From assembly GCA_035352955.1 (NCBI GenBank), contig DAOPYQ010000003.1:76901-140900 (forward strand): a stretch of DNA of 64,000 nucleotides. Reading direction: 5' to 3'. Shown here one piece after another: positions 20,734 through 44,516 of this stretch (positions within the stretch are counted from its first letter, which is position 1; each line of letters opens with the position of its first letter). Below the pieces are notes generated by a model that was not told the origin of the DNA, searched no databases, and saw only the letters and a list, made by a program, of their open reading frames with translations. This DNA comes from Candidatus Omnitrophota bacterium (GTDB taxonomy: Bacteria > Omnitrophota > Omnitrophia > Omnitrophales > Aquincolibacteriaceae). The position numbers were made by a program, and so were the translations under genes.

Positions 20734-23700
20734 TTAAGCGGCCGACGCGATCCTCTGGAACGCTTCGAACAGCACCTGCATGTTCTGCAGCATGCCATCG
20801 ATACTCTTCTTCGTGATCGCCAAACCCGAGGCGCCTTCTTTTTCAAAACCCGGCATTTTCAACAAAAGATCGGCCATCTGCTCCGGCGTCATTCCGCTCA
20901 GATTCCAGATCTTCTGGGCGCCGCGCATAGCCACACGACCCACCGCAGCCTGCGAAACGGCCCCCTGAACATTGTCCGCTTCGCGAACCACCACCCCGGT
21001 GACAAAGCTAAGATTCAGAAAGCTCAGAGCATTCGCCGTACCGGTCAAGACATACCCTTTCCCTTTAACCAGGGCCAGGAACTCCGCTGCCTTGGAATTA
21101 AAATCGTGCGCTTGAGGATCAAAAACCCTGATATCCACCTGGCTGATGAACGCCGGCCGGTGGATCTTATTGGCCCACGCCGCAAAATCCAGGAGAACCT
21201 GACGCACCGCGGCAGCATCGATCCCCGAGCCCAGCACCATCGTATCAAACCGCATATTGGGGTTCAGAAGCAGATTAAACTTCAAGAGAGCCAGAAACAC
21301 CTTCGGGTCCTTGAAGCCTTCGATCACTTTCACCAGACGGCCCGCATCCCCGCTGATCGGCAGAGGCATATTCGGCACCGCATTCTGCAACTGCTCCGTC
21401 AGACCCGTAATGGTCCGCTCATCGACAAGCAATGAGATCGCGATGATCACCGGCGCGAGAGCTTCCATATTGTCGCGTGCAATCCCCTCCGTCAGCGCCA
21501 CCGCCACCTTAAGCGCCGGCGTTTTGAGCTCAGATTCCGGGATCCCCATCGCCTTCAGCGCTTCCCGTGTCGTCTCCATCGCCGTCCGGACCTGCTGCTT
21601 TGTAAAATTCTGTTCGACCCACTTGGCTACGGCAAGCTGCCTTTCGGAAACAGAAACGTCCCGGCGTTCGGCGCGCCCGGCTTCGGCGGCCTTGACCTTT
21701 GCAGCCTCCTCGAGACGCTCAGCCTTAGCCTTCGCCGCGAGAGCGAGAGCGATCGCCCGCATCTCATCAAAAGTCGCGCCCCGGTCGATCGCCGTCTTGA
21801 TCGCCACACGCCCGGCGCCCTCAATTTCAGCCAGCGACACCACCGCCGAAAGCAAGAGAACCTCCCGCTCATCCGACGTGGTCGCCTTGTCCGTAATAAT
21901 GTCGCGAAGCGAACGGAAACCAACGATTTCCCGGCCCTCGGCATCGCGGGCGGGAGCATCAAAACTATTAAAGAAATCCGTGTACTTCTGATATCGAGTG
22001 TCCGTCTGTCCCAGAATGAGCCCGGCCGCATCGGGCTTGGCATCCGCGGGAATCTTCAACACGTTCCAGAAGGCGTGACTGACCTGGTGCTTGGATTTTG
22101 CAGCCGCATTCCACACCTTGAAGTCCGCGATGTTATTGTTGTCCTCAAGCGCCAGACCCGGCACCTCGCGGCTCAGAATCTCAAGAGCTTTGTCCGAGGT
22201 CATTTCCAATTTCCCGGCGCGCGGCGACAAAGCCGTACGAACGGACGGCGCTTCGATCCTAGTGACAGCCTCCTCGCTCAGAACCCACTCCTGGGGAAAC
22301 GTATTGATCCCGGAAGTCAATTTTGTGAGATCCAGATCCTTCGGGATCATGACATTCTGCGGCGCGATCCCCCGCACCAGGTGGCGGATGTAAAGATTTC
22401 CTTCAAACGCGAACACCGCAACCACAAAATTCGCATCCAGAACAAACTGCGGATCGTTCGAGCTGACCCGGATCTCCACTTTTTTCTTGTCACCGCTCAA
22501 GCGCACATTGATACGGCTCGGAACACCTTCCAGGTCCGTCCTCGCGGCATTCACGGAAGTTTCGAGAGCCGTCGCCTCCAGTACTTCGGACTGGATCGCC
22601 AACGCCTGCTCCTTCGTGTATGTTTTGAGGCTCCGGATAAGCTCCTGAAGCTCGGTTTTCGTAGCACCTTCGGGGAACCCATACGTTTCAACGATCGTCT
22701 CCAACGTCCGCACAAGCTCCGGCCTTGAATTTTTCATGAAATACGCATTCTCAAACGCACGCACTCTCAAACCCAAATTGGTATCTTGCGGCGTGAACGA
22801 CCGCTGTCTTATAATGGAAGTCAAACGGAAAGCCTCGTCCAATTCGTTCAACGTCATCTCCCGCTTCTCTGCGCGGAGGGTGGAAAGGGCCAGCGACGAA
22901 AACAACCGGAAAGCCTCGTCGGCGCGGGCCTGATCCTCCGGAGCAACGGTAAAGAGTTTCGTTTTGATCGATCTCAGGGTCATGGAGGTATCATCCCCAT
23001 CGTCGTACTTTTGTTTCGCCATCTGGATGATCCCGACGAGGTCCATCGTCGTGATCCCCCGAGCCACACTCTCAGCTTCCGTCAAAGCGCTCAGGATCTG
23101 CGGAGGATCGATCACCCTTGAAAGATCCGAAGCCGTCAAGATGGGCTCTTCCTGTCCGACAACCGTTGGCGTCCTCTGAGCCGCAGTAGAAACCCTGATC
23201 GCTGAAGCCAGCGGCGGCACATTCGCCGCCATGGGAACATCCCGCTTCTCACTGTTGGCGCGAAGTTCCTTCGAAACAGCGGCCTTCGCGGCTTCCGAGA
23301 ATTTCCCGGTAAAAAACGGATTCAATTCCGCGAAAGTATCGCGACTGACCGAGGGCCTCCGGGCCTTCCGGTACAATTGCCACGCGCCATAGATCGCCTT
23401 AACCAACGATTCGTTGCCGGTGGCACTCTGGGTAGCCGCCCAAAACGCGGCATCGATCTCTCTGTCCGTTAAAGTCCCCTGTTGAACAACCTGCAGCGCT
23501 GTCCAATTCACCGTGGGGTCACCCTCCTCCGTCAGACCACGCTTCTCCGCGCGGATTTCTTTGCGCGACGCGGCATCGAGCATGGGACGAAGCCCGTCCA
23601 AATAGTGTTTCACGGCCGCATTGTAGGCCTTGGCTTTGAAAACGCTTGTATTGGCATAAAGATCCTTAACCGTTTTAAGAGCATCCCGGTCCAGCGGCGT

Positions 23701-26700
23701 GTCCACCGGTGTCGCGCTATCAAGTCCGACGCCTCCGTTCCGTCCTTTCCCCAAATCCGCGGCCTCGCTCCGCACCGCAGCGCCGCCGGCGTTAAACCGG
23801 TAGAAAGAGATCAGATCATCGAACAGCGCCATCCATTTTTCGGCACGCACAGCCTGCGAATTCTTGGGATCCAAGGCTCCCGCAAGAAGATCTTCCAAAA
23901 CAACGTGCTTGCGCGCGCGAACGATCTTGACAAGATCCTCAACCGTTTTCGGGGCTTCGACCAGCGCCCCAGCCGTCACAACGGTCCCCGTGGGAGTCAC
24001 GACCATCCCGGCCGTCGCAGCAACCGGAACCGACGTCATGAGCAGACCCGCAGCCGCCAGTTCCTGGATTCCGAGCCGCTTTTCCGCCCGGGTGATGTCC
24101 ACGATCTCGTTAGAACCAAGTAAAACCACCATCACACGGCCTGTTACCTGCCGGACCTCGGTACTGTTCGCGTTCAAGCCGGGCATGTGCTCGTCCCAAA
24201 GTTGACGCAAGATCGGAAAGACAATCCGCGAATTGACCGCGTAGAAATCAAGCCCTTTGAATGCGCCGACACCTTTACGCGCAACGATGGCATTCGCAAG
24301 CGCTTCGATCAGCCGGTCCTGCTCATCAGCGGCAGTAGCCAGACGCAATCTCGTCGCTAAATCAATGACCTCGGGCGCTGTGCTTAAGAATTCTATAGCT
24401 TCCAGATTTATTCCCTTCACCTCCGAGCGGGCGGGAGGACGGACCCCGAGCCGCTTTTCCGCCCGGGTGATGTCCGCGATCTCGTTAGAACCAAGTTTGA
24501 TCCGGTGAGTCACGGGACTCATGGCCCGGTTAATGACGACCCTGTAGGAAACTCCCGTCTTCAATTGTCCTTTGAGGAGCTCCTGCCAACGGAAAGTCCG
24601 ATCATCGAAAACAATCGTCGGCCCATCCGTCGTAACATGCACCGTCATCCCGATCCCCTTTGACGCATTCTTTTCCAAACGTCCCGCCAGGAAAGGAACA
24701 ACCTGGTCGGCGGAAAGTACTTCAGTCGCCAACTGGCGCGCGGCAACGACAACGTCGCGATTAGCCTCAACATGGGCAGTCTCGATCTTCCGCGCCAGAT
24801 CCTCTTTCTGAAGATCGTCGTAGAATTCGGCTCCCAACACGCCCTGCGAAATCTCCGCCGCGGAATAGCCCTTCGAATCGGACTGTTTGATCAGCTCGAT
24901 CTGCGCCGCATTCAAGCCGAAACTCTCAAGGCCCTCGGCCAACCTCGCCATAAGCTCGAAATTAACACCTCGCAGCGTCAGCGCAAGCTGCAACGTCTCA
25001 CGCTGGATCGCCAACGCGAGCCGCTGTCTCGCGCTTTTGATCCGGCCTTTAACAAGATCCCGGTCGATCGACAGGAAATCCTCGGCAAGCTCCGCGGTGG
25101 ACGCACGGTCCAACTCACTGAGCCTCTTAAACTGCGGAACCGCGCCCGTCCAGAGACGCAGCTGCAATTCGATACGTTCGGGGCTGGTTGTGAGCCACCG
25201 TTTAAGAGACTCACTCTGCTTCGGAAAAAGCGTCACAAAAGATTCGGCCAGATCCCTGAAAAGTCCGGTAAAGAGCATCGCCAAAGGTAAAAACAAAGCG
25301 ATCCCCCCCACCGCCAACGCGTACACCGGGATCCCGAGAGATGCATTAGCGAACGCCACCGCCGCCGCCACAGACACTCCGGCACTCAGGGCGAGACTCC
25401 CCCCGCGGATAACCTGCATAGTCTTTTCAGAAAGCGGTGACACCGAAGGCTCTTCGAGGGAAGATTGGTAGACCGCTGACCAGACGAACTTGAGGACTGC
25501 GCGGATCACGGTCGTAGAACCGGCCGCGATCAGCAAAAACACTGCGATAGTCGGCAGAACCGCCAGCGTACCGACTGCTGCTGCCAATGCCTGCAGAAAG
25601 AAAAACGCCGGGATCAACGCCAGCATCCAGCTGGCCGTTTCCAGGCTTCCACGAATCCCGGCTTCCCTGTCCTCACGGGCCTGTTCGGCTTGCATCGCTA
25701 CGGACATCGCCGGATTGAGCGCCGCGTTTGCGAGATTCACCTGACGGCGTTCCGCGACACGCGCGGCTTCTCCCGAGACGTAATAAGAGATCTGGTCATA
25801 AATAACCGCAAGCGACGGGATCGCAAGTGTCGCCGCGACGATCAGGGGCATGATAAAAATCCCGGTCACCCCGGCCAACACTCCGCTGATGAACGGATAC
25901 ACAAGACCGGCGATCGACGTCGCTCCGGCGGCGATATTCGCGCCCAGGGACGTTCCGATCGTCATAAAATCCTTTTTCTCGCCGCGCTTTTCCGCGCGGA
26001 TAGAAAAAGCAAAAGCATTGAAAGCTCTTTCAGCGACCGCAACGGTGATCCTGCCATCATCATCCACCTGCGGGGCGAAAAGAAGCTCCCACAAACGCGT
26101 CAGATCCGGATTAGCAGACATCTTCGGGATTTTCCCTGTCGCCCGCACCATGACCCCCTGACGTTGATGATAAGCCTCCCAGGCCGCCTGGAGGACATTC
26201 CAAACATTTTTGTCGCGTTCCACCGCCTGAGTAAGAACAGCCCTATGAAAAGCCGACTCGATCTCCACCGGGGTCGGCTTAAAATCCATCCCCATCGGAT
26301 CCTTGGCATACGCCTCAACAACCCGGGCAAAGGTTTCTTCGAGAATAGCCGCGTCCTTGATCCTTTTAGGGTCAAAACACTGCGTCTTAAGCGTCGCCAG
26401 GTCCATGTTGGCGGGCGTTCCCAGGCGCTTTTGTTCCTCTAGCCATTTGGAGTACTGTCCCATGGCTGAATCAAGAGCATCCTGGATCTTAGAGATCTTT
26501 ATTTTCTCAGGGGACTCCTCGGCCGCGTTCCGGAACGATGAGCTTTCAATTTCGGCGGCCAATTGGACCCTTTCAAAAGCCCTCCGGATCTGGAAAGATT
26601 CCAGATCCGCCCGCAGGTCCGCGCCGCGTCTTTCCGAGCGCAGACTGGACACGAACAGATCATAGGCCTCATCCACATCCGCCTGCGTGATCCGGGGTTC

Positions 26701-29700
26701 CGCGGTTTTGGGTTGACGGCCCGTCTGTTCGGTAAAAAACGACTTCATGCCGGACAACGTTAAGGCGGCTATTTTCTTGTAAGCTTCCGCTTGTCCCCGG
26801 GCAAGTGTCACCTCTTTGTTGTAAGCCTCCCAAGCCTGTTCGAGAACATTCAACGCGGAACCCGTCGCAAGGGCTGACGCCCGGTTAAAAGCGAACCACG
26901 CCCGAAGACCATTCACCGGCGTTTGCGGATTTACTCCGGTCGTTTCTTCGGCGCGTTTTTCCTGGCGCGACGCAGGCAGGCTCAATGGCTTGAGGATCCA
27001 AAGAACGCCGGCCACAGTGATGGTCGCGTTGGAAGTCGCTGTGGTGGCCCGGAGAATTATCGGCGTTTTGCGGTGACGAACCTCCATAAGAACGGCGTTA
27101 ACGCCCTGGAATTCCTCGTCGGTTAAAAACCGTCCGAGGCTCCCGCCTTTTTTACCATCCTCATATTGAACCACCGGATATTTCGCAAGGACCGCTTCAA
27201 GACGGCTCTGTTCCGCAACATTGTTGGTTTGCTGGGCCTGCGTAAGGGCTTCGGCGATCTGACCGATCTGGACCCGGACCTGGTCGGCGTCGACCTGGAG
27301 GAACTTCGCAAGATCCGCGACCTGCTTCTCGGTAAATACTATCTTCTGCTCCCCGGCAAGCTGCGTCGCCCGTTTTTCTTGGCGTCCGGCAAGTGTCACC
27401 GGGACGGAAAAAAGCGGCCGTATCTCGATCGCATTGTCCTTCATACTCACCGAATATGTTTTTTCCATCGTCTCGGGAATCGAGTCGGGAAGATCCATCT
27501 GAAGCTTGAACTGCGCCAATTCCCCGAGATTTAAACTGTTTTTCGTCAACATCTGATCGTCCCCGGAATAGTTCCCCTCAAAAATGGGGTCTTTTCCGAC
27601 GAGATCGCTGTCCCCGAATCCGAAGATCCGGAGGGCCACGGAAGTCCTGCGGCCTTTATTTCCACGCGCGGTCAGCGTCCAAAGAGTATTCACCACGCGC
27701 GGAATGTTCTCCAATTGCGTTCCGCGGAGCTCCTTGCGGCCAGCGGCATTGAGAAACCCATTCGTCCCGCCAATGATCCCGGCAAAAAGTGTCGGAGAAT
27801 TGAGAAAAGCATTTGTCATGATCGTGTAGCTCGGCGTTTGGGGAGTCGCCTGAAAACCCCGGCTCACGACCGCCCAACCATTCGTATCGGTCAACCGATT
27901 GTTCGCGACAATATAAAAAACCATGTTGGTAATGTCCGAGGAAGTCCCCATCGTCCAACCCGCGAGAACCCCAGTGGGGGTTTTCTCAAGAAAATTCATG
28001 CGAGGAGAAGCCTCAGTGGTCTCGCCTTTACCAAACGAAACAAGTTGCGTCCCCACAGGCACTTCATTTGTTGTAAAAGCACCCGCCACACTCGCTATCG
28101 AGAGAGCAAAGATCAACCCAAGTGCGCGCCACATAGCCGGCAACATTTTCAAATTAACGGGCCCGCGTTCTGACGGCGTTCCGCGGAGCTCCTTGCGGCC
28201 AGCGGCATTGAGAAACCCATTCGTCCCGCCAATGATCCCGGCAAAAAGTGTCGGAGAATTGAGAAAAGCATTTGTCATGATCGTGTAGCTCGGCGTTTGG
28301 GGAGTCGCCTGAAAACCCCGGCTCACGACCGCCCAACCATTCGTATCGGTCAACCGATTGTTCGCGACAATATAAAAAACCATGTTGGTAATGTCCGAGG
28401 AAGTCCCCATCGTCCAACCCGCGAGAACCCCAGTGGGGGTTTTCTCAAGAAAATTCATGCGAGGAGAAGCCTCAGTGGTCTCGCCTTTACCAAACGAAAC
28501 AAGTTGCGTCCCCACAGGCACTTCATTCGTCGTGAAAGCTCTCGCCGAGAGCACTGCCCCAAACGCGAGAGACACGGCCAGCAAAATCGATTGTAATCCC
28601 CGGGAAATATAGATCGGCGATTTCACAACGGGCGCCGTTTCCTCAACGCCGAGGCCAAGCGCTGTAAAAAAGTTCATACCCAACCTGACCCCCAGCGCGC
28701 TAAGCGACCTCATCAGAGTGACATCCGTAAGCACCGGCATCACGGCCAAAAAGTCCCGGATCTCCTGCGTCAAACCCGGTTCGAGCGGACGTGTCGCGAT
28801 AATGTTATTCAACTCGGCAGCGATCTTTTCTTCCTTCTGGGCCCGCGTCATGCGCTTTTCCGCGCGGGTGTACGTGACCAGGATCGCCGGATTCCCAAAC
28901 CTGGAAGGACGGATTTGCACAACAAACGGCCCCTTACCGTTAACAGCCGCTAAAGCGTTCGTCAGGCTTTCCGGACCGGAATAATTGACCGGTTGCTCCG
29001 CCGTATCGCCGCCCATGATGAGAAAAACTCTTGCGGAAGGATTCAGTTCGACAAGACGGGCCACGGCTTCACGGACCCCGTCCAGATTGTCCACCTGCTT
29101 GGGTCCACGATAGTCCCGCCCGTCGATCACAGCGTCCACCTCGCCCCTCTTTTCCGCGCGGGGAGTACCCACGTCCCGATCGTCTTGAATCACGCCACCC
29201 GCAACCGGACCCATTTTTAGTAGATTCATATCCCCCGTAGGAATTTCCGGGGATTTCATCCGCGTGGCGGGTCCGTCCGGAAAGATACTTTTGGAAAGAC
29301 TCGCTCTCTCGTTCCTGTTGCGGATCCAGCGGGCGGCCGAAACCGCTCCGGCGACAACCCCCACGCCAAGGATCACGGCGAGAGACACGCCGGTCGTAAG
29401 AAAAGCCAGTCCTGCCGCCGCCAACGCGATCGCGACGCCGCCGAGAACAATGCTGTCTTTCCAGGCAGGCTGAAAATAAACCATCGAAATTTTGGAGAAA
29501 TCGAACTTCCCCGACGTGAGATCAGGGATCTTCCACTCGGCCAGCATTCTCTTGGCCAGTGTTTCCCTTTCATTAATACTAAAAAGCCTGTCTTGTAGCA
29601 AATGGTGTGCGAAGTTCGTCCTCTCGTCCTGCAGCAGCCACGGACTTTGGGCGGTCTGGGGAAGCTCCCGCTTTTGGTCCTCAGACTTCCCGCCGTTAAT

Positions 29701-31788
29701 GGCAAGAAGCCGCATAAGCTCGTTAACTTTCTCGGGAGTGTAGATCGCGTTAAGCTTTTCGATCGCAGCCTGGCGGACCGCCGGATCCTCACTTCCCAGA
29801 TCCCTTAGCGATGCCGCGGCAATTTCATTTCCCTTGTCCAAGGTCGGCGCAAGCATCTCAGGCAAAATCTGCCCCATTTGAACGGCAATCGTGTCGTCGA
29901 CTATGGCAGTCGCACCGTCGATCCCGACCTGGTCGGGACTGACCTTGCGAAGAACGCGGTACGTTTCACCGCCCTCTTTCGCTTGGACGAGCCGCAACTC
30001 ATTGCGACGAGCCATGGGCCCGTCATTCACGTCAGGAAGGATCCCGGCAGGTGTTGGGACTTCTGCCACTTTGGTTGCGGTCGCAAGTAATTTGCCCAGG
30101 ACCCCCAGTTCCCCAACACCCTGCGCATCCTGGCCGACAGGTCCTTTGAGCGGCTGAGCGAGAAGGGTTTTTTCGACAAAAGACAGCTCGAAATTCTGCT
30201 TTCCGTCCTGGAGCATGGTGGAGCGGTAAAGTCTCTCGTCGGATTTTTCACTAAGGCGCGGGGTGACGATCCCATAGCTCACGGAATTTTCGCGGAAAAG
30301 GTCGCTCATGCCGTCCGTGTGAAAACCGCCCGTGATAAGGACGGCCTTCGTGATCTTGCGCTGGCTCATGGCGTTCTGCATTTCTTTATAGAAGACGCCT
30401 TCACGCTGACGGGCGAAACCGTAGAACTCAAGGCCGGTCTTGAACAGCTCGGTCATCTTTCCGCTAAAAGCCTTGGGCATGACCTCCTGGTCTTTGCGGA
30501 CCGAGGTATCCCCCGCGGCAATGATCGCGGTCTTCAGGCGTTCGACAAGGTTCGTCACGGTCACACGATCCCCGGCATCGACCAGCTCGCGCCACTGCGT
30601 GCGGCTCAACTCCAGATGCAAAAGCTTACGCAAAAGCTCACCGTCCCTGTAAAGGGCAAGGAGGGCCTTCTGCTGAGGCTCCTTGGCTAAGGCATCGAGC
30701 ATCTGCGTAAAAAGGTATTCAATCTCCGCGAACAGGACCTTGGGGTCAAGTTCGGCCCGGAGCGTCACGTAACCGGCAAAAAGGCTGAACGCAGGATAAT
30801 CGCTGAATTTGAATCCTTTGGGGGCGACTTCAGCGGCAAGGCGCTCGAGCACGTCGCGCGGAGAAACTTCCTGCGCGGATTTTCCGACGGAGATGCTCCC
30901 TTCATTGAAACTTTCAAGCGCGGCAAGAAGTTCTTTCGAGACGCCCTTCGTTTTGAGCATTTTGAGAAGCGCGGCCTTTTCTTCGAGTCCCTTGGCTTTG
31001 TCCAGGGACTTTTCCATTTCCTGGATGGCCAGAAGGCGCGTGATCTGCGGCCAGCCGGCCTGGGCGAAAAGGCTGTTAAGATCGACATCGAGGATTCTCC
31101 TGGACTGTTTGGCGAGCTGCTGAACGAAAGGCATGAATTCGCGGCGGCCCAGCTCGAAACGTTTCCAGTCGGCGATCAGGGCGCGCGTCTCGGGCGTAAA
31201 GACCTTGGAGGCGGCCCGGTCGAGCTTCTGATCAAATCCCTGAAAGAAACGGTTGACGTCGGGTTCGGCGCCGAACACTTTCTTCAGCGCTTCGTAGTTG
31301 GCCTTGTAAAGAGGCGCCTGCTCGATGCCGAGTGCTTCGACGTTCTTCTCGTTCTCCATCAGGAACAGTTCGGAACCGGTCAGCTCGCCCTGCTTGGCGA
31401 GTTCGTCGCACAGTTTAAGATTGCGTTCTTCATCGGGAAAAAGGCGGAGATAATCCGCATCGAGTTTGGTCGAGGCCCCTTCCACAAAAATGGTCGTGAA
31501 TCCGTATTTCTTGTTCATGTGCTCCAGAAGTTGCTTGATCTTCATCTGGGCTTGATAATTGGCGTGCGCGTTCTGGATATGAAGGATGAATTGCGGTGCA
31601 GTAGATGCGGGCGCTTCGTAAAGAGCATCGACGGTGCCGAGATCCACGGGAACATCAATGCTTAAATAAGTGGGCAGTTCTCTCTTGGACGCAATTTCGA
31701 TATTAGCACCGGGGGCCCCCCATGCGATCTGTGTCGTGAGAAAGCAAACCACGGTCGCCGCCGCGATCACCTTCAGGCCCTTTTTCAT
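20734..31788 (-). CDS. giant modular secreted/membrane-associated protein (3,684 aa), function unknown
   Basis: One uninterrupted ORF with an ATG start and GGAGGA 8 nt upstream. Signal peptide MKKGLKVIAAATVVCFLTTQIAWGA. Hydrophobic clusters are encoded near 29335-29460, 28540-28600, 28075-28146 and 25240-25980. Contains the repeated RAEKR motif and internal tandem duplications. Confidence 0.9.
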   Translation of the reverse strand: MKKGLKVIAAATVVCFLTTQIAWGAPGANIEIASKRELPTYLSIDVPVDLGTVDALYEAPASTAPQFILHIQNAHANYQAQMKIKQLLEHMNKKYGFTTIFVEGASTKLDADYLRLFPDEERNLKLCDELAKQGELTGSELFLMENEKNVEALGIEQAPLYKANYEALKKVFGAEPDVNRFFQGFDQKLDRAASKVFTPETRALIADWKRFELGRREFMPFVQQLAKQSRRILDVDLNSLFAQAGWPQITRLLAIQEMEKSLDKAKGLEEKAALLKMLKTKGVSKELLAALESFNEGSISVGKSAQEVSPRDVLERLAAEVAPKGFKFSDYPAFSLFAGYVTLRAELDPKVLFAEIEYLFTQMLDALAKEPQQKALLALYRDGELLRKLLHLELSRTQWRELVDAGDRVTVTNLVERLKTAIIAAGDTSVRKDQEVMPKAFSGKMTELFKTGLEFYGFARQREGVFYKEMQNAMSQRKITKAVLITGGFHTDGMSDLFRENSVSYGIVTPRLSEKSDERLYRSTMLQDGKQNFELSFVEKTLLAQPLKGPVGQDAQGVGELGVLGKLLATATKVAEVPTPAGILPDVNDGPMARRNELRLVQAKEGGETYRVLRKVSPDQVGIDGATAIVDDTIAVQMGQILPEMLAPTLDKGNEIAAASLRDLGSEDPAVRQAAIEKLNAIYTPEKVNELMRLLAINGGKSEDQKRELPQTAQSPWLLQDERTNFAHHLLQDRLFSINERETLAKRMLAEWKIPDLTSGKFDFSKISMVYFQPAWKDSIVLGGVAIALAAAGLAFLTTGVSLAVILGVGVVAGAVSAARWIRNRNERASLSKSIFPDGPATRMKSPEIPTGDMNLLKMGPVAGGVIQDDRDVGTPRAEKRGEVDAVIDGRDYRGPKQVDNLDGVREAVARLVELNPSARVFLIMGGDTAEQPVNYSGPESLTNALAAVNGKGPFVVQIRPSRFGNPAILVTYTRAEKRMTRAQKEEKIAAELNNIIATRPLEPGLTQEIRDFLAVMPVLTDVTLMRSLSALGVRLGMNFFTALGLGVEETAPVVKSPIYISRGLQSILLAVSLAFGAVLSARAFTTNEVPVGTQLVSFGKGETTEASPRMNFLEKTPTGVLAGWTMGTSSDITNMVFYIVANNRLTDTNGWAVVSRGFQATPQTPSYTIMTNAFLNSPTLFAGIIGGTNGFLNAAGRKELRGTPSERGPVNLKMLPAMWRALGLIFALSIASVAGAFTTNEVPVGTQLVSFGKGETTEASPRMNFLEKTPTGVLAGWTMGTSSDITNMVFYIVANNRLTDTNGWAVVSRGFQATPQTPSYTIMTNAFLNSPTLFAGIIGGTNGFLNAAGRKELRGTQLENIPRVVNTLWTLTARGNKGRRTSVALRIFGFGDSDLVGKDPIFEGNYSGDDQMLTKNSLNLGELAQFKLQMDLPDSIPETMEKTYSVSMKDNAIEIRPLFSVPVTLAGRQEKRATQLAGEQKIVFTEKQVADLAKFLQVDADQVRVQIGQIAEALTQAQQTNNVAEQSRLEAVLAKYPVVQYEDGKKGGSLGRFLTDEEFQGVNAVLMEVRHRKTPIILRATTATSNATITVAGVLWILKPLSLPASRQEKRAEETTGVNPQTPVNGLRAWFAFNRASALATGSALNVLEQAWEAYNKEVTLARGQAEAYKKIAALTLSGMKSFFTEQTGRQPKTAEPRITQADVDEAYDLFVSSLRSERRGADLRADLESFQIRRAFERVQLAAEIESSSFRNAAEESPEKIKISKIQDALDSAMGQYSKWLEEQKRLGTPANMDLATLKTQCFDPKRIKDAAILEETFARVVEAYAKDPMGMDFKPTPVEIESAFHRAVLTQAVERDKNVWNVLQAAWEAYHQRQGVMVRATGKIPKMSANPDLTRLWELLFAPQVDDDGRITVAVAERAFNAFAFSIRAEKRGEKKDFMTIGTSLGANIAAGATSIAGLVYPFISGVLAGVTGIFIMPLIVAATLAIPSLAVIYDQISYYVSGEAARVAERRQVNLANAALNPAMSVAMQAEQAREDREAGIRGSLETASWMLALIPAFFFLQALAAAVGTLAVLPTIAVFLLIAAGSTTVIRAVLKFVWSAVYQSSLEEPSVSPLSEKTMQVIRGGSLALSAGVSVAAAVAFANASLGIPVYALAVGGIALFLPLAMLFTGLFRDLAESFVTLFPKQSESLKRWLTTSPERIELQLRLWTGAVPQFKRLSELDRASTAELAEDFLSIDRDLVKGRIKSARQRLALAIQRETLQLALTLRGVNFELMARLAEGLESFGLNAAQIELIKQSDSKGYSAAEISQGVLGAEFYDDLQKEDLARKIETAHVEANRDVVVAARQLATEVLSADQVVPFLAGRLEKNASKGIGMTVHVTTDGPTIVFDDRTFRWQELLKGQLKTGVSYRVVINRAMSPVTHRIKLGSNEIADITRAEKRLGVRPPARSEVKGINLEAIEFLSTAPEVIDLATRLRLATAADEQDRLIEALANAIVARKGVGAFKGLDFYAVNSRIVFPILRQLWDEHMPGLNANSTEVRQVTGRVMVVLLGSNEIVDITRAEKRLGIQELAAAGLLMTSVPVAATAGMVVTPTGTVVTAGALVEAPKTVEDLVKIVRARKHVVLEDLLAGALDPKNSQAVRAEKWMALFDDLISFYRFNAGGAAVRSEAADLGKGRNGGVGLDSATPVDTPLDRDALKTVKDLYANTSVFKAKAYNAAVKHYLDGLRPMLDAASRKEIRAEKRGLTEEGDPTVNWTALQVVQQGTLTDREIDAAFWAATQSATGNESLVKAIYGAWQLYRKARRPSVSRDTFAELNPFFTGKFSEAAKAAVSKELRANSEKRDVPMAANVPPLASAIRVSTAAQRTPTVVGQEEPILTASDLSRVIDPPQILSALTEAESVARGITTMDLVGIIQMAKQKYDDGDDTSMTLRSIKTKLFTVAPEDQARADEAFRLFSSLALSTLRAEKREMTLNELDEAFRLTSIIRQRSFTPQDTNLGLRVRAFENAYFMKNSRPELVRTLETIVETYGFPEGATKTELQELIRSLKTYTKEQALAIQSEVLEATALETSVNAARTDLEGVPSRINVRLSGDKKKVEIRVSSNDPQFVLDANFVVAVFAFEGNLYIRHLVRGIAPQNVMIPKDLDLTKLTSGINTFPQEWVLSEEAVTRIEAPSVRTALSPRAGKLEMTSDKALEILSREVPGLALEDNNNIADFKVWNAAAKSKHQVSHAFWNVLKIPADAKPDAAGLILGQTDTRYQKYTDFFNSFDAPARDAEGREIVGFRSLRDIITDKATTSDEREVLLLSAVVSLAEIEGAGRVAIKTAIDRGATFDEMRAIALALAAKAKAERLEEAAKVKAAEAGRAERRDVSVSERQLAVAKWVEQNFTKQQVRTAMETTREALKAMGIPESELKTPALKVAVALTEGIARDNMEALAPVIIAISLLVDERTITGLTEQLQNAVPNMPLPISGDAGRLVKVIEGFKDPKVFLALLKFNLLLNPNMRFDTMVLGSGIDAAAVRQVLLDFAAWANKIHRPAFISQVDIRVFDPQAHDFNSKAAEFLALVKGKGYVLTGTANALSFLNLSFVTGVVVREADNVQGAVSQAAVGRVAMRGAQKIWNLSGMTPEQMADLLLKMPGFEKEGASGLAITKKSIDGMLQNMQVLFEAFQRIASAA
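24071..24496. repeat. intragenic dispersed repeat: two 51-nt copies (50/51 identical) 375 bp apart
   Basis: 24071..24121 and 24446..24496 both read ccgagccgcttttccgcccgggtgatgtcc[a/g]cgatctcgttagaaccaagt. They encode LGSNEI[V/A]DITRAEKRLG. Confidence 0.85.
27717..28527. repeat. intragenic tandem duplication, period 459 bp, with a 352-bp core that is 100% identical
   Basis: 27717..28068 equals 28176..28527 base for base in my line-by-line comparison. Similarity decays after that (ttgtaaaagc versus tcgtgaaagc). The antisense track ORFs 27656..27958 and 28154..28417 share identical peptides. Confidence 0.95.
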
Positions 31789-31850
31789 GTTTTGTATCCT
31801 CCTCGGATCAGATTATGAACCCTTTTTAAAAGATTAAAAAACATAAAGAA

Positions 31851-31878
31851 AATGTAACATATCACGGCCAGTTTGCAA
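31851..31878 (-). promoter_or_regulatory. candidate sigma-70 promoter directly upstream of the giant gene
   Basis: The minus strand reads TTGCAA-N16-TACATT, about 60 nt upstream of the ATG at 31788. Confidence 0.3.
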
Positions 31879-31960
31879 GCCTAAAAATCCCCTCAAGAGG
31901 ACTTTTTTAAGATTTATTGTAAGTCTAACCGAATCAACCATTTGCACAGTTTTTCTCCGC

Positions 31961-32689
31961 TTAAATGGTTACGAATTCAACGCCAAAACCAAGTTGCTCC
32001 TTGCGAACTTCCTCTCGACGGATCTTCCCGGCAACCTGGTACTCCTCCGGAAAATTGGCACTTGGGAAGATATGAATGTCGACCTTGAGTCCCGCAAGGG
32101 GCCCAAGAGCCGAGATCCGATGCGCCGCACCAAGGTCCAAATACTCCGCAAACAGCCCTCCTTCGCTGATATTGGTCGCGATGGCGCGCGTTTGGAGAAC
32201 CTCCCCCTTCGGGCTTGTGATCGTGAGCTTCAGCGGGATCGCCACATGCATACGATGACTGCGGCGCTTTTCGAGCTGGTGCCCCGGCGAATCCTGCGGG
32301 TTTTTTACCCCCGGCGCCATGATGCGCTTTTCCGCGTCCTTGTCAAAAAGGAACGGCCCGAAACTTTCCGCCACTTCCTTTTCGTCCGCGCACACGTCGA
32401 CCTTCCCGGTAAAGCAATTATCCTCGAGATAATGGGCCATCTCCGCGGAGGCCCCATAGATCACACTGTGCTTGGGGCGGATGCAGACCGTCAGCAGCCT
32501 TCGCAGACCGATCGCGTCAAGCGCTCCGGCCTCCTGGAAATTCAAAATGATCCTCTGCAGACGGTGGCGCCGAATGTTCTTCTGGATCTTCCAGGCAACC
32601 TCCTGCACGGATTCAAAGGTCGGCTCTCCTTTCAAGTCAAAGACAGCGACCCCTCCGATCTCTCTGGTGGAATAGTGGAATTTGCTCAT
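31961..32689 (-). CDS. STAS domain - PilZ domain fusion protein (putative c-di-GMP receptor)
   Basis: The N-terminal STAS fold (VAVFDLKGEPTF...IILNFQEAGALDAIGLRRLL) has Ala where SpoIIAA-type proteins carry the phospho-Ser (DAIG versus DSSG). The C-terminal PilZ motifs are RRSHR (RxxxR) and NISEGG (D/N-x-S-x-x-G), about 30 aa apart. Confidence 0.85.
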   Translation of the reverse strand: MSKFHYSTREIGGVAVFDLKGEPTFESVQEVAWKIQKNIRRHRLQRIILNFQEAGALDAIGLRRLLTVCIRPKHSVIYGASAEMAHYLEDNCFTGKVDVCADEKEVAESFGPFLFDKDAEKRIMAPGVKNPQDSPGHQLEKRRSHRMHVAIPLKLTITSPKGEVLQTRAIATNISEGGLFAEYLDLGAAHRISALGPLAGLKVDIHIFPSANFPEEYQVAGKIRREEVRKEQLGFGVEFVTI

Positions 32690-32924
32690 GACAGATTTTT
32701 CCTCTTTTTACTGCGTTCGATCCTTCTGAGGTTCCTGTGAAGTCTCGGGTACATATAACCCGATAACAAATCACCCCGCAAGATCACACAAGGAACGTGA
32801 GGACCTCCTTTCCCATTCATCATTCTCAAGCCTTTCATCACGCTCAAATCATGCGTCATTTTCCGTATCTCCCTTTTTCAAGATTATCAGTCGTTTTACT
32901 ATGCTTTTTTTCACTTCTACATGA

Positions 32925-32953
32925 AACATAACTCAATACAATACTTTTGTCAA
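32925..32953 (-). promoter_or_regulatory. candidate sigma-70 promoter inside the AT-rich island
   Basis: The minus strand reads TTGACA aaagtattgtattgagt TATGTT with a 17-nt spacer. This implies a leader of about 230 nt before the STAS-PilZ ATG. Confidence 0.4.
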
Positions 32954-33170
32954 TATCTTAAATAAATAAATAAGTATTAGATTTAATTAAGTCTTATGTT
33001 TATCAATATATAACAAGTTTAATCAATAATATACTTAGCGCGAGCCATTTCGACACACATTTTAAATATCACCAATGGAAACCAACGGGAGAGAAAAACA
33101 GCGGATTTCAACAGCCCAGGGTCAGCAAAAAGCCTCAGTTCACCCTGGCTCGAAAGAAAGAAACAACACT

Positions 33171-34577
33171 TTAAGCGACCGGCCCCCTCGGAGACTTCCG
33201 AAAAAACTTAATGCGCTCGATCAGCGTTTTTTCGAAACCGATAGGTTTGGGGATGTAATACTGCGCGGATTTATCGAGATAGACTTGGCCTCTGGCTTCC
33301 TCCGGCTTGTCGTGCGGATAAATATATCCGACCCCATGACCGAGATCCTTGGCGCCGGAATACGCGCTACTGCGGAGATGCTGCGGCACCTGCTCGAACT
33401 TTTTGGTCTTGATGTCCTCGGTAGCGGTTTCAATTGCCATGTAACTCGCATTGCTTTTCGGCGCGAGCGCGAGATACGTCACGAGCTGCGAAAGAATGAT
33501 ACGGGCTTCCGGCATTCCGACAAACTCCACGGCCGTAAAACCGCTCGACGCGAGGATGAGCGCCTGAGGGTCCGCGTTCCCGATGTCCTCACTGGCGAAG
33601 ATCACGAGACGGCGCACGATAAACCTGGGATCCTCGCCCGCGTAAAGCATCTTCGCAAGCCAGTAAACCGCCGCGTCCACATCCGAACCGCGAAGGCTCT
33701 TGATGAAGGCGCTGATCGTATCGTAATGCTGATCCTCGTCCCAGTCGTAATGGACGATCTTTTTCTGGCAGGATTCTTCGGCGACCTCCGGCGTAAAATG
33801 AACGATCCCCTTCTCATCCGGCGGCGTCGTCAGGACGCCCACCTCGAGGGCGTTCAATGCGCGCCGGGCATCTCCGGAGGCTTGCCGGGCAATGTGCGCG
33901 AGCGCCTCGGGGGCCGCCTCGATCTTCAAGTTCCCGAACCCTCGGTCCTTGTCGGCAAGCGCCCTCTTCATCAGCGCGATCAGATGGGATTCTTCGTGAG
34001 GCTTCAATTCACAGACCAGGGAGCGGGACAGAAGCGGGCCGCGGATCGCGAACGTCGGGTTTTGCGTCGTCGCGCCGATCAGGATAATGACGCCGGACTC
34101 GACGTCGGGCATCAGGATGTCCTGCTGGGCCTTGTTGAAACGGTGCATCTCATCGATAAAAAGAACGGTCTTGCGGCGCGATTGACGAAGCAACTTCCGC
34201 GCCTCGTCCTGGATCTTCCGCATCTCGGCGACGTTGCTCAACACCGCATTAATCGAGACATAACGCGCGGCGGTCATGCGGGCGATCACCAGCGCAAGCG
34301 TCGTTTTGCCGATGCCGGGCGGGCCGTAAAGGATCAGCGAAGTCAGCCGGTCGGATTCGAGGGTGCGGCGGAGAAGTTTTCCGGGCCCGAGAAGATGGTC
34401 CTGCCCCAGGATCTCCCCGAGGGTCGCCGGCCGCATCCGGACGGCCAGCGGCGCGCCATGCGGGACCTGCAGGGAATCGTCGACTTCGGATTGATGGAAT
34501 AATTCGTCAGAAAAGCCGGAGGAAGGATAACGGATGGAGGACGAAGCTTCGGCTTTCAGTTTTTCGTCATCCTTCAT
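33171..34577 (-). CDS. rarA: replication-associated recombination protein A (AAA+ ATPase)
   Basis: LILYGPPGIGKTTLA, VLFIDEMHRFNKAQQD, and the C-terminal MgsA domain (YDTISAFIKSLRGSDVDAAVYWLA). Confidence 0.93.
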   Translation of the reverse strand: MKDDEKLKAEASSSIRYPSSGFSDELFHQSEVDDSLQVPHGAPLAVRMRPATLGEILGQDHLLGPGKLLRRTLESDRLTSLILYGPPGIGKTTLALVIARMTAARYVSINAVLSNVAEMRKIQDEARKLLRQSRRKTVLFIDEMHRFNKAQQDILMPDVESGVIILIGATTQNPTFAIRGPLLSRSLVCELKPHEESHLIALMKRALADKDRGFGNLKIEAAPEALAHIARQASGDARRALNALEVGVLTTPPDEKGIVHFTPEVAEESCQKKIVHYDWDEDQHYDTISAFIKSLRGSDVDAAVYWLAKMLYAGEDPRFIVRRLVIFASEDIGNADPQALILASSGFTAVEFVGMPEARIILSQLVTYLALAPKSNASYMAIETATEDIKTKKFEQVPQHLRSSAYSGAKDLGHGVGYIYPHDKPEEARGQVYLDKSAQYYIPKPIGFEKTLIERIKFFRKSPRGPVA

Positions 34578-43250: not shown

Positions 43251-43713
43251 AAAGATCGAGTTTGCGGGTCGTCTGGTCTTTAAGATTCGTGACAATGACC
43301 GAATCGGGAGCGATCGAAGTGACTTCATAATCCCCGATCCGGCCCTTGGGCTCGATCATCTGTCCGTTGAGGATCGCAAACGGCTGCGTGGGATTGTAAA
43401 TAATCCCTTCGAGAACGATCCCCGCCACGACGGGAGCTGCCGGGGGCGTAACGACATGGGACACCGCAACCGAAGGTTTCGGAATCCGGACCGGACGATT
43501 CCCGGCAAGGCTCGCCTCCCCCTTCACGATAAAAACATAAGCCCCGGCCGCCACAAAAATACCCCCCATAAAAAGAAAAACGATAAGTCTCCAGTTGTTT
43601 TTTTTCCGGACAACTTCGATTTTCGGCATCGAAACGTCCCGCACCGGAACGACCGGCGCTTCGGATTCCTTCGTCGCCTGGATCTGTTTCAGGTAATCAT
43701 AAACAATGCTCAT
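43249..43713 (-). CDS. GspB/PilP-like bitopic protein (T2SS protein B-like C-terminal domain)
   Basis: I prefer the ATG at 43713, which forms an ATGA overlap with the ExeA-like stop. One transmembrane helix (WRLIVFLFMGGIFVAAGAYVFIV). C-terminal LEGIIYNPTQPFAILNGQMIEPKGRIGDYEVTSIAPDSVIV. Confidence 0.6.
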   Translation of the reverse strand: MSIVYDYLKQIQATKESEAPVVPVRDVSMPKIEVVRKKNNWRLIVFLFMGGIFVAAGAYVFIVKGEASLAGNRPVRIPKPSVAVSHVVTPPAAPVVAGIVLEGIIYNPTQPFAILNGQMIEPKGRIGDYEVTSIAPDSVIVTNLKDQTTRKLDL

Positions 43714-44516
43714 TGGATCTCTTCCATCGAAGCGAGCAGGATATCCTGGTCGAGCACCTTCTGTTTTCGGACGAATCCGAGCAACAGCGCGCGATCGCAA
43801 AGAAGATTGATCAGACGCGGAACACCTTTCGAAAAGTCGTTGATCACCTGGTACGCCTCCGGCGTCACCATGACTCCTTCCGCCCCCGATCGGGAAAGGC
43901 GGAAATCCACGTAGGCCTTTACATCGCCGGAGTCGAGCGGCTGAAGGTCATATTTGATCACGACGCGCTGATAGATCTGACGGAGGTCATAACGGCGAAG
44001 GTTGGCCTTGAGCTCCGGCTGCCCCACCAGAACGATCTGGAGCAACTTGCCGTGCTTCGTCTCGAGATTCGACAAAAGGCGTATCTGCTCGAGCTGGCGC
44101 GGCTTCAGGTTCTGTGCCTCATCGATCACGAGCACCGCGTTCCCCTGCTGCAGGCTCAGATCGATCAAGAATGCATCGAGTTTTTTTACAATATCAAGGC
44201 GGGTCTTTTTCTCGGCTTCAAGCCCGAAATCCTCAACGATCGCCTGCAAAAGCTGGATATCGCTGAAGTAAGGGCTCAGGATCAGCGAGGTCCGGACGGT
44301 CTTGGGAAGGCGTTCCATAAGCGCTTTGCAAAGCGTGGTTTTCCCCGTCCCGACTTCCCCGGTGATCAAAAGAAGTCCCTTACGTTCTTCGATCCCGTAC
44401 ATCAGGGACCCGAGGGCTTCCTGATGGGAACGGCTTTCAAAAAAGAGATCGGCGTCGGTCGTGATGTGAAAAGGCTGGGTCTTGAATCCGTAAAACTCGC
44501 AAAGGGCCGTGGTCAT
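43710..44516 (-). CDS. ExeA/GspA/MshM-family AAA ATPase
   Basis: ITGEVGTGKTTLC, VLVIDEAQNL, LVGQPEL, PRLINLLCDRALL. ATGA overlap with the secretin stop. Confidence 0.88.
   Translation of the reverse strand: MTTALCEFYGFKTQPFHITTDADLFFESRSHQEALGSLMYGIEERKGLLLITGEVGTGKTTLCKALMERLPKTVRTSLILSPYFSDIQLLQAIVEDFGLEAEKKTRLDIVKKLDAFLIDLSLQQGNAVLVIDEAQNLKPRQLEQIRLLSNLETKHGKLLQIVLVGQPELKANLRRYDLRQIYQRVVIKYDLQPLDSGDVKAYVDFRLSRSGAEGVMVTPEAYQVINDFSKGVPRLINLLCDRALLLGFVRKQKVLDQDILLASMEEIQ

Follow-up and report, generated by a model that had tools for sequence, protein, structure and literature searches.

The gene at 31961..32689 joins a STAS domain to a PilZ domain, and its product is best read as a STAS adaptor gated by c-di-GMP, with a core role independent of the giant gene lying next to it (probability about 0.6). 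STAS-PilZ is an old, vertically inherited core gene of its Omnitrophota lineage. The giant gene is inserted beside it in one sub-lineage only; if STAS-PilZ controls it at all, this would be a secondary co-option specific to that lineage. The domain architecture, the motif conservation, the synteny, the promoters, and the coupling to a small gene, orf57, were observed directly.

PilZ receptors are classified by the function of their non-PilZ part, and partner-switching logic is usually driven by serine phosphorylation. A STAS output domain would link c-di-GMP directly to partner-switching logic. The phylum Omnitrophota comprises uncultivated, ultra-small bacteria that may be predatory; the strong conservation of the family in this phylum makes STAS-PilZ a likely central regulator there.

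Domain architecture and fold

The open reading frame described in the initial annotation as a STAS-PilZ fusion is real, as supported by Pfam, the AlphaFold2 model, and Foldseek. It lies on the minus strand, which had been left unstated.

31961..32689, minus strand: STAS-PilZ gene, open reading frame with ATG start, 242 aa
32345..32689, minus strand: STAS domain, approximately residues 1-115
residues 116-141 of STAS-PilZ, minus strand: linker with helix
31964..32266, minus strand: PilZ barrel, residues 142-242
31961..31963, minus strand: STAS-PilZ stop codon

Pfam placed STAS at residues 7-89 (23.7 bits; cut-off 22.6) and PilZ (PF07238) at residues 140-241 (28.9 bits; cut-off 22.5); both scores barely exceed their cut-offs and are backed independently by the AlphaFold2 model and Foldseek. 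The model (pLDDT 87.9, pTM 0.85) shows a β-α STAS fold followed by a β-barrel, the strands of which (residues 151-239) have pLDDT values of roughly 80-92. When compared with the PDB by Foldseek, the N-terminal domain resembles SpoIIAA, RsbV, RsfB, and RsbS (target TM 0.72-0.78; E-values down to 2e-5), and its STAS matches include 4hyl, 1til, 1th8, 1thn, 6m36, and 8ih8 (target TM 0.70-0.78). The C-terminal domain resembles MotI, the PilZ domain of BcsA, VCA0042, and PlzA. No solved chain in the PDB covered both STAS and PilZ, the best query TM-score being 0.40. The protein falls far below both NCBIfam cut-offs, scoring 15.4 bits against 53.45 for TIGR00377 and 16.0 against 114.75 for TIGR02886. 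Both a signal peptide and a DNA-binding domain are absent. From its sequence, the product is predicted to be a cytoplasmic two-domain protein and a putative c-di-GMP receptor. The window, that is, the whole 64-kb stretch of DNA analysed here, contains no second STAS-PilZ copy detectable with the family HMM at E ≤ 10.

Conservation of the c-di-GMP motifs and of the position equivalent to the phospho-serine

Three short elements of the gene bear on its mode of control.

32252..32266, minus strand: RRSHR, the RxxxR c-di-GMP motif, residues 142-146, in the interdomain linker at the start of PilZ
32156..32173, minus strand: NISEGG, the (D/N)xSxxG c-di-GMP motif, residues 173-178
32513..32515, minus strand: codon of Ala59, equivalent of the phospho-serine Ser58 of SpoIIAA in the profile alignment to 1auz

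In the AlphaFold2 model, RRSHR is placed after the linker helix (residues 135-141) and before the first strand of the barrel (residues 151-158). NISEGG is located 27 residues after Arg146 of RRSHR, which is the canonical spacing. Both motifs had been described as intact, and this was borne out in the family: Arg142, Arg143, Arg146, Asn173, Gly177, and Gly178 are invariant in all 119 full-length members, and Ser175 is present in 111 of the 119. The pN/pS value of STAS-PilZ was 0.25.

Ala59 occupies the phospho-serine position, because Asp58-Ala59 is paired with Asp57-Ser58 of SpoIIAA in the profile alignment; the earlier assignment of alanine to the phospho-acceptor position of STAS is confirmed. 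Across the 119 members, this position is occupied by Pro (42), Ala (24), Thr (21), Ser (9), Asp (7), Gln (7), Glu (4), His (3), and Val (2). Proline is the commonest residue, and Ser or Thr is found in only 30 members: the phospho-site shows no constraint within the family. Among the remoter STAS-PilZ relatives (25-33% identity), most retain a canonical DSLG or DTLG together with the PilZ motifs; they appear to be the counterparts of the tandem upstream paralogue of other genomes described below. This combination suggests that PilZ was joined to a probably phosphorylatable STAS first, and that the loss of Ser/Thr probably came later, in the paralogue found in the window. The initial annotation had proposed that control by phosphorylation was replaced by c-di-GMP binding. 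Alanine at the site agrees with this proposal, but the lack of constraint in the family and the DSLG or DTLG of the distant relatives do not.

The STAS-PilZ family and its gene neighbourhood

Altogether 284 STAS-PilZ homologues were retrieved. Contigs of 100% identity stem from JGI metagenomes such as Ga0209099. The family is small (50 proteins at E ≤ 1e-3 among 1.84 billion representatives), and its named members are Omnitrophota without exception. The gene is embedded in a conserved housekeeping order, pheS-pheT-rarA-(orf57)-STAS-PilZ-DUF1844-LPG_synthase_TM-aroQ-accBC, and the slot between rarA and DUF1844/LPG_synthase_TM is retained down to 39% STAS-PilZ identity. In 14 distant loci, a tandem STAS-PilZ paralogue is located directly upstream in the same operon; in L054, L035, L036, L048, and L051, this paralogue, orf57, and STAS-PilZ are found together. 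In genomes without the giant gene, DUF1844 lies directly downstream of STAS-PilZ, and it therefore marks the far edge of the giant insertion.

19905..20303, minus strand: DUF1844 gene (PF08899, 82.9 bits)

DUF1844, LPG_synthase_TM, aroQ, accB, and accC are the ancestral downstream neighbours in nearly all loci. This constancy, together with the YchM STAS-ACP complex (3ny7) at rank 15 of the structural matches, might mean that STAS-PilZ acts on the lipid and fatty-acid genes that follow it (DUF1844, LPG_synthase_TM, accB, and accC), with YchM as precedent. We consider this very improbable. Approximately 140-680 nt lie between STAS-PilZ and the lipid operon in giant-less loci, and STAS-PilZ has its own promoter and is placed after a different upstream operon. 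Anti-sigma antagonists, rather than SLC26 STAS domains, head the structural matches, and housekeeping synteny may hold no functional signal.

Association with the giant gene

The giant gene and its conserved N-terminal domain are positioned as follows.

20734..31788, minus strand: giant gene, 3,684 aa; hydrophobic, signal-like segment at the N-terminus
30199..31656, minus strand: conserved N-domain of the giant protein, residues ~45-530, EreA/ChaN/TraB/TIKI-like fold by fold comparison

The rest of the protein is hypervariable, with about 10 R[AQ]EK[RW] motifs and several hydrophobic segments. No Pfam domain was found in the 3,684 residues, and a sequence search of the N-domain against PDB and Pfam gave nothing significant; fold comparison alone was informative. 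The possibility that the giant gene was recently acquired by horizontal transfer was rejected, the GC content being uniform at 0.56 without a compositional signal.

STAS-PilZ is co-directional with the giant gene and upstream of it, and the gap between the two open reading frames is exactly 172 nt, as had been noted initially. From this arrangement, second-messenger control of the production, export, or activity of the giant protein had been suggested; STAS-PilZ would then be a dedicated c-di-GMP-dependent regulator, forming one module with its neighbour. Some observations favour such a link. The pair is adjacent and co-directional throughout the clade at STAS-PilZ identities of at least ~72% (18 GTDB species and 18 metagenome loci), although one insertion inherited vertically would also give clade-wide adjacency. 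The orf57-STAS-PilZ-giant unit was tandemly duplicated at least twice, in two genomes, with STAS-PilZ copies 82% and 93% identical to each other. Both copies remained intact with all motifs present, and only in these tandem arrays is STAS-PilZ located downstream of a giant gene. In L041, the same site holds an unrelated giant ORF, which is YD-repeat-like and at least 3,184 aa long. In addition, small pilZ genes beside giant genes are reported for Omnitrophota in a preprint (bioRxiv 10.1101/2023.11.21.568195).

The wider distribution makes a dedicated regulator unlikely. Among 43 informative species-level loci, STAS-PilZ is followed by the giant gene in 18 and by an unrelated giant ORF in another, whereas in 24 loci STAS-PilZ occupies the same position, equally conserved and with identical motifs, and no giant gene is there. 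Conversely, 18 of the 38 metagenomic homologues of the giant N-terminal region have no STAS-PilZ within 5 kb, one of these 18 having too little upstream sequence to judge. Ten of the homologues lacking STAS-PilZ were checked; they are placed behind UvrD, ValRS, a histidine kinase, and other unrelated genes, one of them Pfam-unmatched. In the lineage of L057 and L070, STAS-PilZ was deleted to a remnant of ~15 codons, and orf57 and the giant gene were retained. Moreover, STAS-PilZ carries, as noted above, neither a signal peptide nor a DNA-binding domain, whereas the giant N-domain follows a signal-like segment. The co-occurrence check proposed in the initial annotation thus gave a divided answer: the pair is always adjacent in one clade, but each gene is found without the other elsewhere. 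Given the giant-less loci, the deletion lineage, and the separate promoters described below, second-messenger control of the giant gene is unsupported as the core role of STAS-PilZ.

The adjacency might instead be accidental, if the gap between STAS-PilZ and DUF1844 were a permissive hot spot for the integration and expansion of large secreted-protein genes to which STAS-PilZ is functionally unrelated. Three unrelated inserts at this one site are consistent with a hot spot: the R[AS]ExR-type giant, the YD-repeat-like giant of L041, and, in L027, a protein of 807 aa whose N-terminus has a hydrophobic, signal-like segment. The unit is bordered by Y1 (RAYT-like) transposase genes in L006 and ENA contig 6en2VV56, and the occurrence of the giant family behind UvrD and other housekeeping genes, the uniform GC content, and the giant gene's own promoter fit as well. 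However, both duplicated STAS-PilZ copies are intact down to 82% identity, which suggests selection on each copy rather than passive hitch-hiking. We regard an accidental adjacency as possible but somewhat doubtful.

The intergenic region

The following elements were located between STAS-PilZ and the giant gene.

31883..31906, minus strand: 10-bp, A/U-flanked hairpin, AAAAGUCCUC-UUGA-GGGGAUUUUU, directly 3' of the STAS-PilZ stop
31851..31878, minus strand: separate promoter of the giant gene, TTGCAA, 16 nt, (TGT)TACATT extended -10
31822..31831, minus strand: 5'-UTR motif of the giant gene, TTTTAAAAAG, AAAG core invariant in 20 loci
31798..31804, minus strand: Shine-Dalgarno sequence of the giant gene, GAGGAGG, following the 5'-UTR motif

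In the intergenic alignment of 20 loci, the giant promoter is conserved clade-wide as TTGAAA-N13-TGTTACATT; it has 8 of 12 consensus matches by hand count, which is below what the consensus scan reports, and its support is this alignment. With this conserved promoter, the giant gene does not require co-transcription with STAS-PilZ. The hairpin, which was not called by the consensus scan, is a weak candidate for a terminator. That each gene has a conserved promoter of its own, and that a hairpin lies between the two, further disfavours a single regulatory module.

Similar elements consisting of a hairpin and a T-run were seen by eye in L029, L015, and L012. The giant-type promoter pattern with an N15 spacer, the conserved spacer being N13, has its sole match in the window at 20334..20363, upstream of DUF1844, which is uninformative. 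A riboswitch or structured leader was rejected, as an Rfam search at E ≤ 1 over 31500..33300 gave a chance rRNA fragment only. A structured intergenic RNA was rejected likewise: the fold was not better than those of shuffled sequences (z = -0.53).

The answer to the giant-gene question is mostly negative yet useful. Because this giant family is served by a separate promoter and can generally do without STAS-PilZ, claims of second-messenger control need a basis in expression or interaction, not in adjacency.

orf57 and the operon promoter

Upstream of STAS-PilZ, a small gene and a promoter were identified.

32686..32859, minus strand: orf57, small basic 57-aa protein, MTHDL..GKGGP..LSGYMxPKLHRxLRRxERxRKRK, with its own Shine-Dalgarno site
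32925..32953, minus strand: sigma-70-type promoter of the orf57/STAS-PilZ operon, TTGACA, 17 nt, TATGTT, with an AT-rich tract upstream

The stop codon of orf57 overlaps the ATG of STAS-PilZ in an ATGA, so that the two genes are translationally coupled. orf57 was matched in 33 fetched loci, distant ones included; its Shine-Dalgarno sequence AGGAG is conserved among relatives, and its pN/pS of 0.38 indicates purifying selection. No existing annotation of orf57 was found anywhere, and it had no Pfam match. The operon promoter has 10 of 12 consensus matches. It is the only such site in the window, none of 100 shuffles matched, and its TTGACA is invariant in 19 loci. On the best reading, the actual operon partner of STAS-PilZ is this translationally coupled, previously unannotated gene. 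orf57 is missing from many family loci (e.g. L001, L031, and L040-L047), and it therefore cannot be a universal partner of STAS-PilZ. An origin of orf57 as a decayed upstream paralogue was ruled out by the five loci, listed above, that carry both beside STAS-PilZ.

Proposed role and signalling context

As a c-di-GMP-gated adaptor, STAS-PilZ would be transcribed with the coupled orf57 from its own strong promoter. Judging from the motifs, the PilZ barrel and the RxxxR of the interdomain linker would bind c-di-GMP. By analogy with YcgR, PlzD, and MotI, c-di-GMP at the domain junction might change the presentation of the N-terminal STAS domain. The output would be binding or release of a partner by STAS, which we infer because STAS is a protein-protein interaction domain; the switch would be set by the second messenger and not by serine phosphorylation. 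The likeliest partners seem to be orf57 and, in distant relatives, the second STAS-PilZ paralogue.

Signalling by c-di-GMP exists in the lineage, as judged from a GGDEF gene ~10 kb from STAS-PilZ in L001 and from a T2SS ATPase with an MshEN domain encoded in the window. Upstream in the window, at 43.7-54 kb, is a T2SS/T4P-like locus. The scanned ORFs of the window included no anti-sigma kinase (HATPase_c_2), no PP2C phosphatase, and no sigma factor of the sigma-70 family, and the ±10 kb surveyed in relatives had none either. The sole sigma factor seen was rpoN (2884..4335).

As a counter-point, the strict clade-wide adjacency of the giant gene and the duplication of the whole unit would suit a tighter coupling with the giant gene than the preferred reading provides for. 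In a quite improbable extension, orf57, STAS-PilZ, and the giant gene would form a self-contained, duplicable cassette, in which a partner switch of c-di-GMP and orf57 times giant expression. STAS-PilZ bound to c-di-GMP would release or capture the small basic orf57 protein, which would act on the giant promoter or the 5'-UTR element (TTTAAAAAG). Such a PilZ-based switch would time the expression of a surface or predation polyprotein, possibly self-processed; it may be cut at R[AS]ExR by its own TIKI/TraB-like N-domain.

Comparison with known systems

Functional analogies are circuits that feed c-di-GMP into sigma/anti-sigma or STAS partner switching, namely RsiG-σ(WhiG) of Streptomyces and HsbA-HsbD of Pseudomonas. 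RsiG belongs to neither the PilZ nor the STAS proteins, and HsbA, which consists of one phosphorylatable STAS domain, activates a diguanylate cyclase without sensing c-di-GMP itself. RsiG-σ(WhiG) is mentioned in the abstract of PMC13232838. No paper describing the STAS + PilZ architecture was found in the literature searched.

According to West-Roberts et al. 2023 (bioRxiv 10.1101/2023.11.21.568195), small pilZ genes are located immediately downstream of Omnitrophota giant genes, and the giants, with sizes given as above 30,000 aa, are grouped as Archaeovorin and Dockerin types. As in the window, a small PilZ gene of the same phylum adjoins a very large, poorly annotated gene for a membrane or secreted protein. 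In contrast, STAS-PilZ of the window is upstream of its 3,684-aa neighbour, which has no Archaeovorin or Dockerin domains, and no STAS is mentioned for the pilZ genes of the preprint.

A sensing module is fused to STAS also in YtvA (LOV-STAS), RsbR (globin-like + STAS), and SLC26/SulP (C-terminal STAS), and YtvA (2mwg) and the stressosome (7b0u) were among the Foldseek matches of STAS-PilZ. The order in STAS-PilZ is reversed, however, with STAS first, and the sensor is PilZ. The tandem STAS paralogues of the relatives recall RsbR/RsbS, but an RsbT-like kinase was not seen.

STAS-PilZ shares the STAS fold with SpoIIAA, RsbV, and RsfB, and its LD-x-x-G-L loop between β3 and α2 aligns with DSSGL of SpoIIAA. 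It differs from these proteins in having Ala at the phospho-serine position and an extra PilZ domain, with no kinase or phosphatase nearby. With YcgR, PlzD (VCA0042), and MotI/DgrA, it shares the C-terminal PilZ barrel, RxxxR in the linker, and (D/N)xSxxG ~27 residues further on, and its PilZ half matches MotI (5vx6) and VCA0042 (2rde, 1yln, and 3kyg) in Foldseek. These receptors are small cytoplasmic adaptors working through protein-protein contacts, as STAS-PilZ is proposed to be by analogy. The N-terminal domain of STAS-PilZ, in contrast to that of YcgR and PlzD, is a SpoIIAA-type STAS and not PilZN/YcgR_N.

STAS-PilZ: domains and fold

STAS-PilZ, for which the initial annotation had proposed that phosphorylation was replaced by c-di-GMP binding, is probably a c-di-GMP-gated STAS adaptor (probability roughly 0.6). 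The gene is real and lies on the minus strand.

31961..32689, minus strand: STAS-PilZ gene (ATG start, 242 aa)

Pfam assigned a STAS domain to residues 7-89 (23.7 bits; cut-off 22.6) and a PilZ domain to residues 140-241 (28.9 bits; cut-off 22.5). Both scores were marginal, and the domains were therefore checked structurally. The AlphaFold2 model, with 20 family members as input, had a pLDDT of 87.9 and a pTM of 0.85; it comprises a β-α STAS fold (5-114), a linker helix (135-141), and a β-barrel (151-239). In Foldseek searches against the PDB, the N-terminal half resembled anti-sigma-factor antagonists (4hyl; SpoIIAA, 1til/1th8/1thn; RsbV, 6m36; RsfB, 8ih8) with target TM-scores of 0.72-0.78, and the C-terminal half matched the PilZ proteins MotI (5vx6), BcsA (5ej1/4p00), VCA0042 (2rde), and PlzA (7mie). 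No single solved chain in the PDB covered both halves; the top query TM-score was 0.40. The observed fusion of the two domains is confirmed. The expected motifs RRSHR and NISEGG are present at residues 142-146 and 173-178, and the alanine described at the STAS phosphorylation position is Ala59, which a profile alignment places on phospho-Ser58 of SpoIIAA.

Conservation of the phosphorylation position

A word-indexed search gave 284 relatives, nearly all of 239-255 aa. Every named one belongs to Omnitrophota, and a protein encoded in a Candidatus Omnitrophota MAG shows 100% identity. When 1.84 billion cluster representatives were scanned exhaustively with HMMER, just 50 proteins reached E<=1e-3; those with names were again Omnitrophota.

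The PilZ motifs do not vary among the 119 full-length members, and STAS position 59 is under no constraint (P 42, A 24, T 21, S 9, D 7, Q 7, E 4, H 3, V 2). Distant relatives (25-33% identity) mostly carry a canonical DSLG or DTLG together with the PilZ motifs, and appear to be a second protein, paralogue A. This gene lies directly upstream of the window-type gene (paralogue B) in 14 distant loci and has been lost from the window's clade.

L003 9259..10014, and L032, L045, L047, L049, L054 and 8 other relatives' loci: paralogue A, 243-261 aa, upstream of paralogue B

The coexistence of phospho-loop and PilZ domain in these relatives indicates that the fusion predates loss of the phospho-site. 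The alanine itself stands, but replacement of phosphorylation by c-di-GMP is too simple a description, given the unconstrained site and the apparent age of the fusion.

Genomic context of STAS-PilZ and the giant gene

The window was compared with 45 GTDB species-representative loci and several long metagenome contigs. The synteny of paralogue B is constant (thrS-infC-rpmI-rplT-pheS-pheT-rarA-[A][orf57]-B-DUF1844-LPG_synthase_TM-aroQ-accB-accC-x-pfk), and these housekeeping neighbours are kept even at 39% identity (L054). As originally described, the giant ORF begins 172 nt downstream of STAS-PilZ on the same strand.

20734..31788, minus strand: giant ORF, 3,684 aa
19905..20303, minus strand: DUF1844, retained beyond the giant gene

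Gene directly downstream of paralogue B in the 45 GTDB species loci
Giant gene with the window's N-terminal domain: 18/45
Unrelated YD-repeat-like ORF of at least 3,184 aa (L041): 1/45
No giant gene: 24/45
Uninformative, contig ends: 2/45

The giant-less loci include L020, L024, L026, and L027, at 66-70% identity. Together with the retained DUF1844, they mean that the giant gene was inserted between B and DUF1844 in a single sub-lineage. Two unrelated large genes, both starting with a hydrophobic, signal-like segment, were found at the same site.

L041 9743..19294: YD/Rhs-repeat-like ORF, at least 3,184 aa
L027 11118..13541: 807-aa ORF

The site downstream of STAS-PilZ may be an insertion hot spot. 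That this explains the proximity of the two genes is possible, if rather unlikely; such an explanation concerns adjacency only and is compatible with the adaptor model.

An alignment of the giant N-terminal domain, used to scan metagenomes, picked up 38 loci. STAS-PilZ is directly upstream in 18, all at the rarA position and with an N-domain identity of at least 56%. Two loci keep the rarA position.

L057 4380..5000, and L070: deletion variant, STAS-PilZ lost, orf57 intact, giant gene retained

In L057 a STAS-PilZ remnant of about 15 codons (SKFHYSTRE.GGV) is left. In this variant the giant promoter is gone, and the giant gene follows orf57 by about 160 nt. In the other 18 loci (21-52% identity), a broad family HMM detected no STAS-PilZ within 5 kb, one locus having too short an upstream sequence for a judgement. 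The upstream gene in ten of these encodes UvrD (three loci), ValRS, a histidine kinase, a LOG-family protein, a Na/H exchanger, or others, one of the ten giving no Pfam match. In the suggested co-occurrence check, the genes adjoin in 18/45 GTDB and 18/38 metagenome loci, and each also occurs without the other. In the distant relatives L040 (19857..20723), L045 (20087..20719), and L049 (19748..20722), where no giant gene adjoins STAS-PilZ, a homologue of the giant N-domain (26-27% identity) starts about 9-10 kb downstream on the same strand.

orf57, promoters and intergenic signals

32925..32953, minus strand: orf57/STAS-PilZ promoter (TTGACA, 17-nt spacer, TATGTT)
32686..32859, minus strand: orf57, unannotated ORF for a 57-aa basic protein; its stop overlaps the STAS-PilZ ATG (ATGA)
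31883..31906, minus strand: 10-bp A/U-flanked hairpin between the STAS-PilZ stop codon and the giant promoter
31851..31878, minus strand: giant gene's own promoter (TTGCAA, 16 nt, TGT-TACATT)
31822..31831, minus strand: giant 5'-UTR motif TTTAAAAAG, conserved in all 20 aligned loci

orf57, overlooked earlier, is in fact the gene to which STAS-PilZ is coupled, by translation. Its AGGAG Shine-Dalgarno site is conserved, as is the pattern MTHDL..GKGGP..LSGYMxPKLHRxLRRxERxRKRK, and it was matched in 33 of the fetched loci, distant ones among them. The pN/pS is 0.38, with synonymous sites near saturation; no Pfam match and no annotation were found in any source checked. The TTGACA of its promoter is invariant and preceded by an AT-rich tract; the window copy, with 10/12 consensus positions, is unique in the window.

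The 20-locus alignment of the 172-nt spacer revealed a second conserved promoter and the Shine-Dalgarno site of the giant gene. Located about 30 nt upstream of the start codon, TTTAAAAAG may act as an operator or RNA element. Hairpin and T-run elements are clearer in several relatives, as judged by eye. The separate promoter and the hairpin mean that giant expression does not need co-transcription with STAS-PilZ, read-through being possible. The proposed c-di-GMP control of the giant through STAS-PilZ thus loses ground: each gene occurs alone, and the giant has its own promoter.

Duplicated units and features of the giant protein

ENA contig 6en2VV56 has the order rarA, Y1_Tnp, orf55, STAS-PilZ (P0037), giant (3,744 aa), orf55, STAS-PilZ (P0027), giant (5,668 aa). 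In CAZDVO01, one contig (L022) ends with a 2,016-aa giant gene directly followed by another orf57 and by residues 1-48 of another STAS-PilZ; a different contig (L052) starts with the remainder of a STAS-PilZ, behind which lies a giant ORF (at least 3,269 aa). The STAS-PilZ copies are 82% identical in the 6en2VV56 genome and 93% in CAZDVO01, where they are closer to each other than to copies across genomes. The whole orf57-STAS-PilZ-giant unit thus appears to have been duplicated independently, with both STAS-PilZ copies kept intact. Such duplications keep alive a giant-gene link, although it seems improbable that STAS-PilZ is a dedicated giant-gene regulator by lineage-specific co-option. Y1_Tnp (RAYT/IS200-like) genes flank the unit in L006 (19782..20429), L055 (713..1357), and 6en2VV56, and could be linked to the way it was rearranged or duplicated.

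The giant protein contains ten R[AQ]EK[RW] motifs (aa 877, 975, 1469, 1608, 1931, 2442, 2567, 2648, 2746, 2972). In every giant protein that relatives encode at this position, the top over-represented pentamer is likewise R[AS]ExR (RAEAR, RAEVR, RSEMR, RSEVR, RSETR; in L052, RSESR nine times). The motifs resemble boundaries between modules or sites of proteolytic processing; a preprint on giant genes describes the cleavage points as unknown (West-Roberts et al., bioRxiv 10.1101/2023.11.21.568195).

28177..28539 and 27718..28080, minus strand: tandem duplication inside the giant gene, DNA 360/363 identical

The encoded residues 1084-1204 and 1237-1357 are identical; the repeat either arose by duplication very recently or reflects an assembly collapse/expansion.

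Proposed mechanism and relation to known systems

In the c-di-GMP-gated adaptor, the ligand is predicted to bind the PilZ barrel together with the RxxxR of the linker and would re-orient the STAS domain, which would then bind or release a partner, with orf57 and paralogue A as candidates. Re-orientation of the N-terminal domain on ligand binding is established for YcgR, PlzD, and MotI-type receptors. The neighbourhoods examined showed no RsbW-type kinase, no PP2C phosphatase, and no sigma factor of the sigma-70 family; rpoN is the sole sigma factor found in the window.

Databases label the family "PilZ domain-containing protein" or "anti-anti-sigma regulatory factor", so that both domains are visible to annotation pipelines. 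No description of their combination was found in the searchable literature, and no solved structure contains both. The protein is of moderate interest to specialists in c-di-GMP and partner switching; for the giant-gene question it matters less, since support for the proposed coupling is weak.

43710..54064, minus strand: T2SS/T4P-like locus (AAA_22 ATPase, secretin, PilM-like, N_methyl pilin, Laminin_G_3, T2SSF, T2SSE)

The T2SSE ATPase of this locus has an MshEN domain, of the c-di-GMP-binding type. The same preprint describes a T2SS-like locus ahead of Omnitrophota giant genes and small pilZ genes behind them. These pilZ genes and the window's locus also keep the giant-gene link alive; with its T2SS/T4P-like locus, the window likewise shows the upstream secretion system of that pattern.
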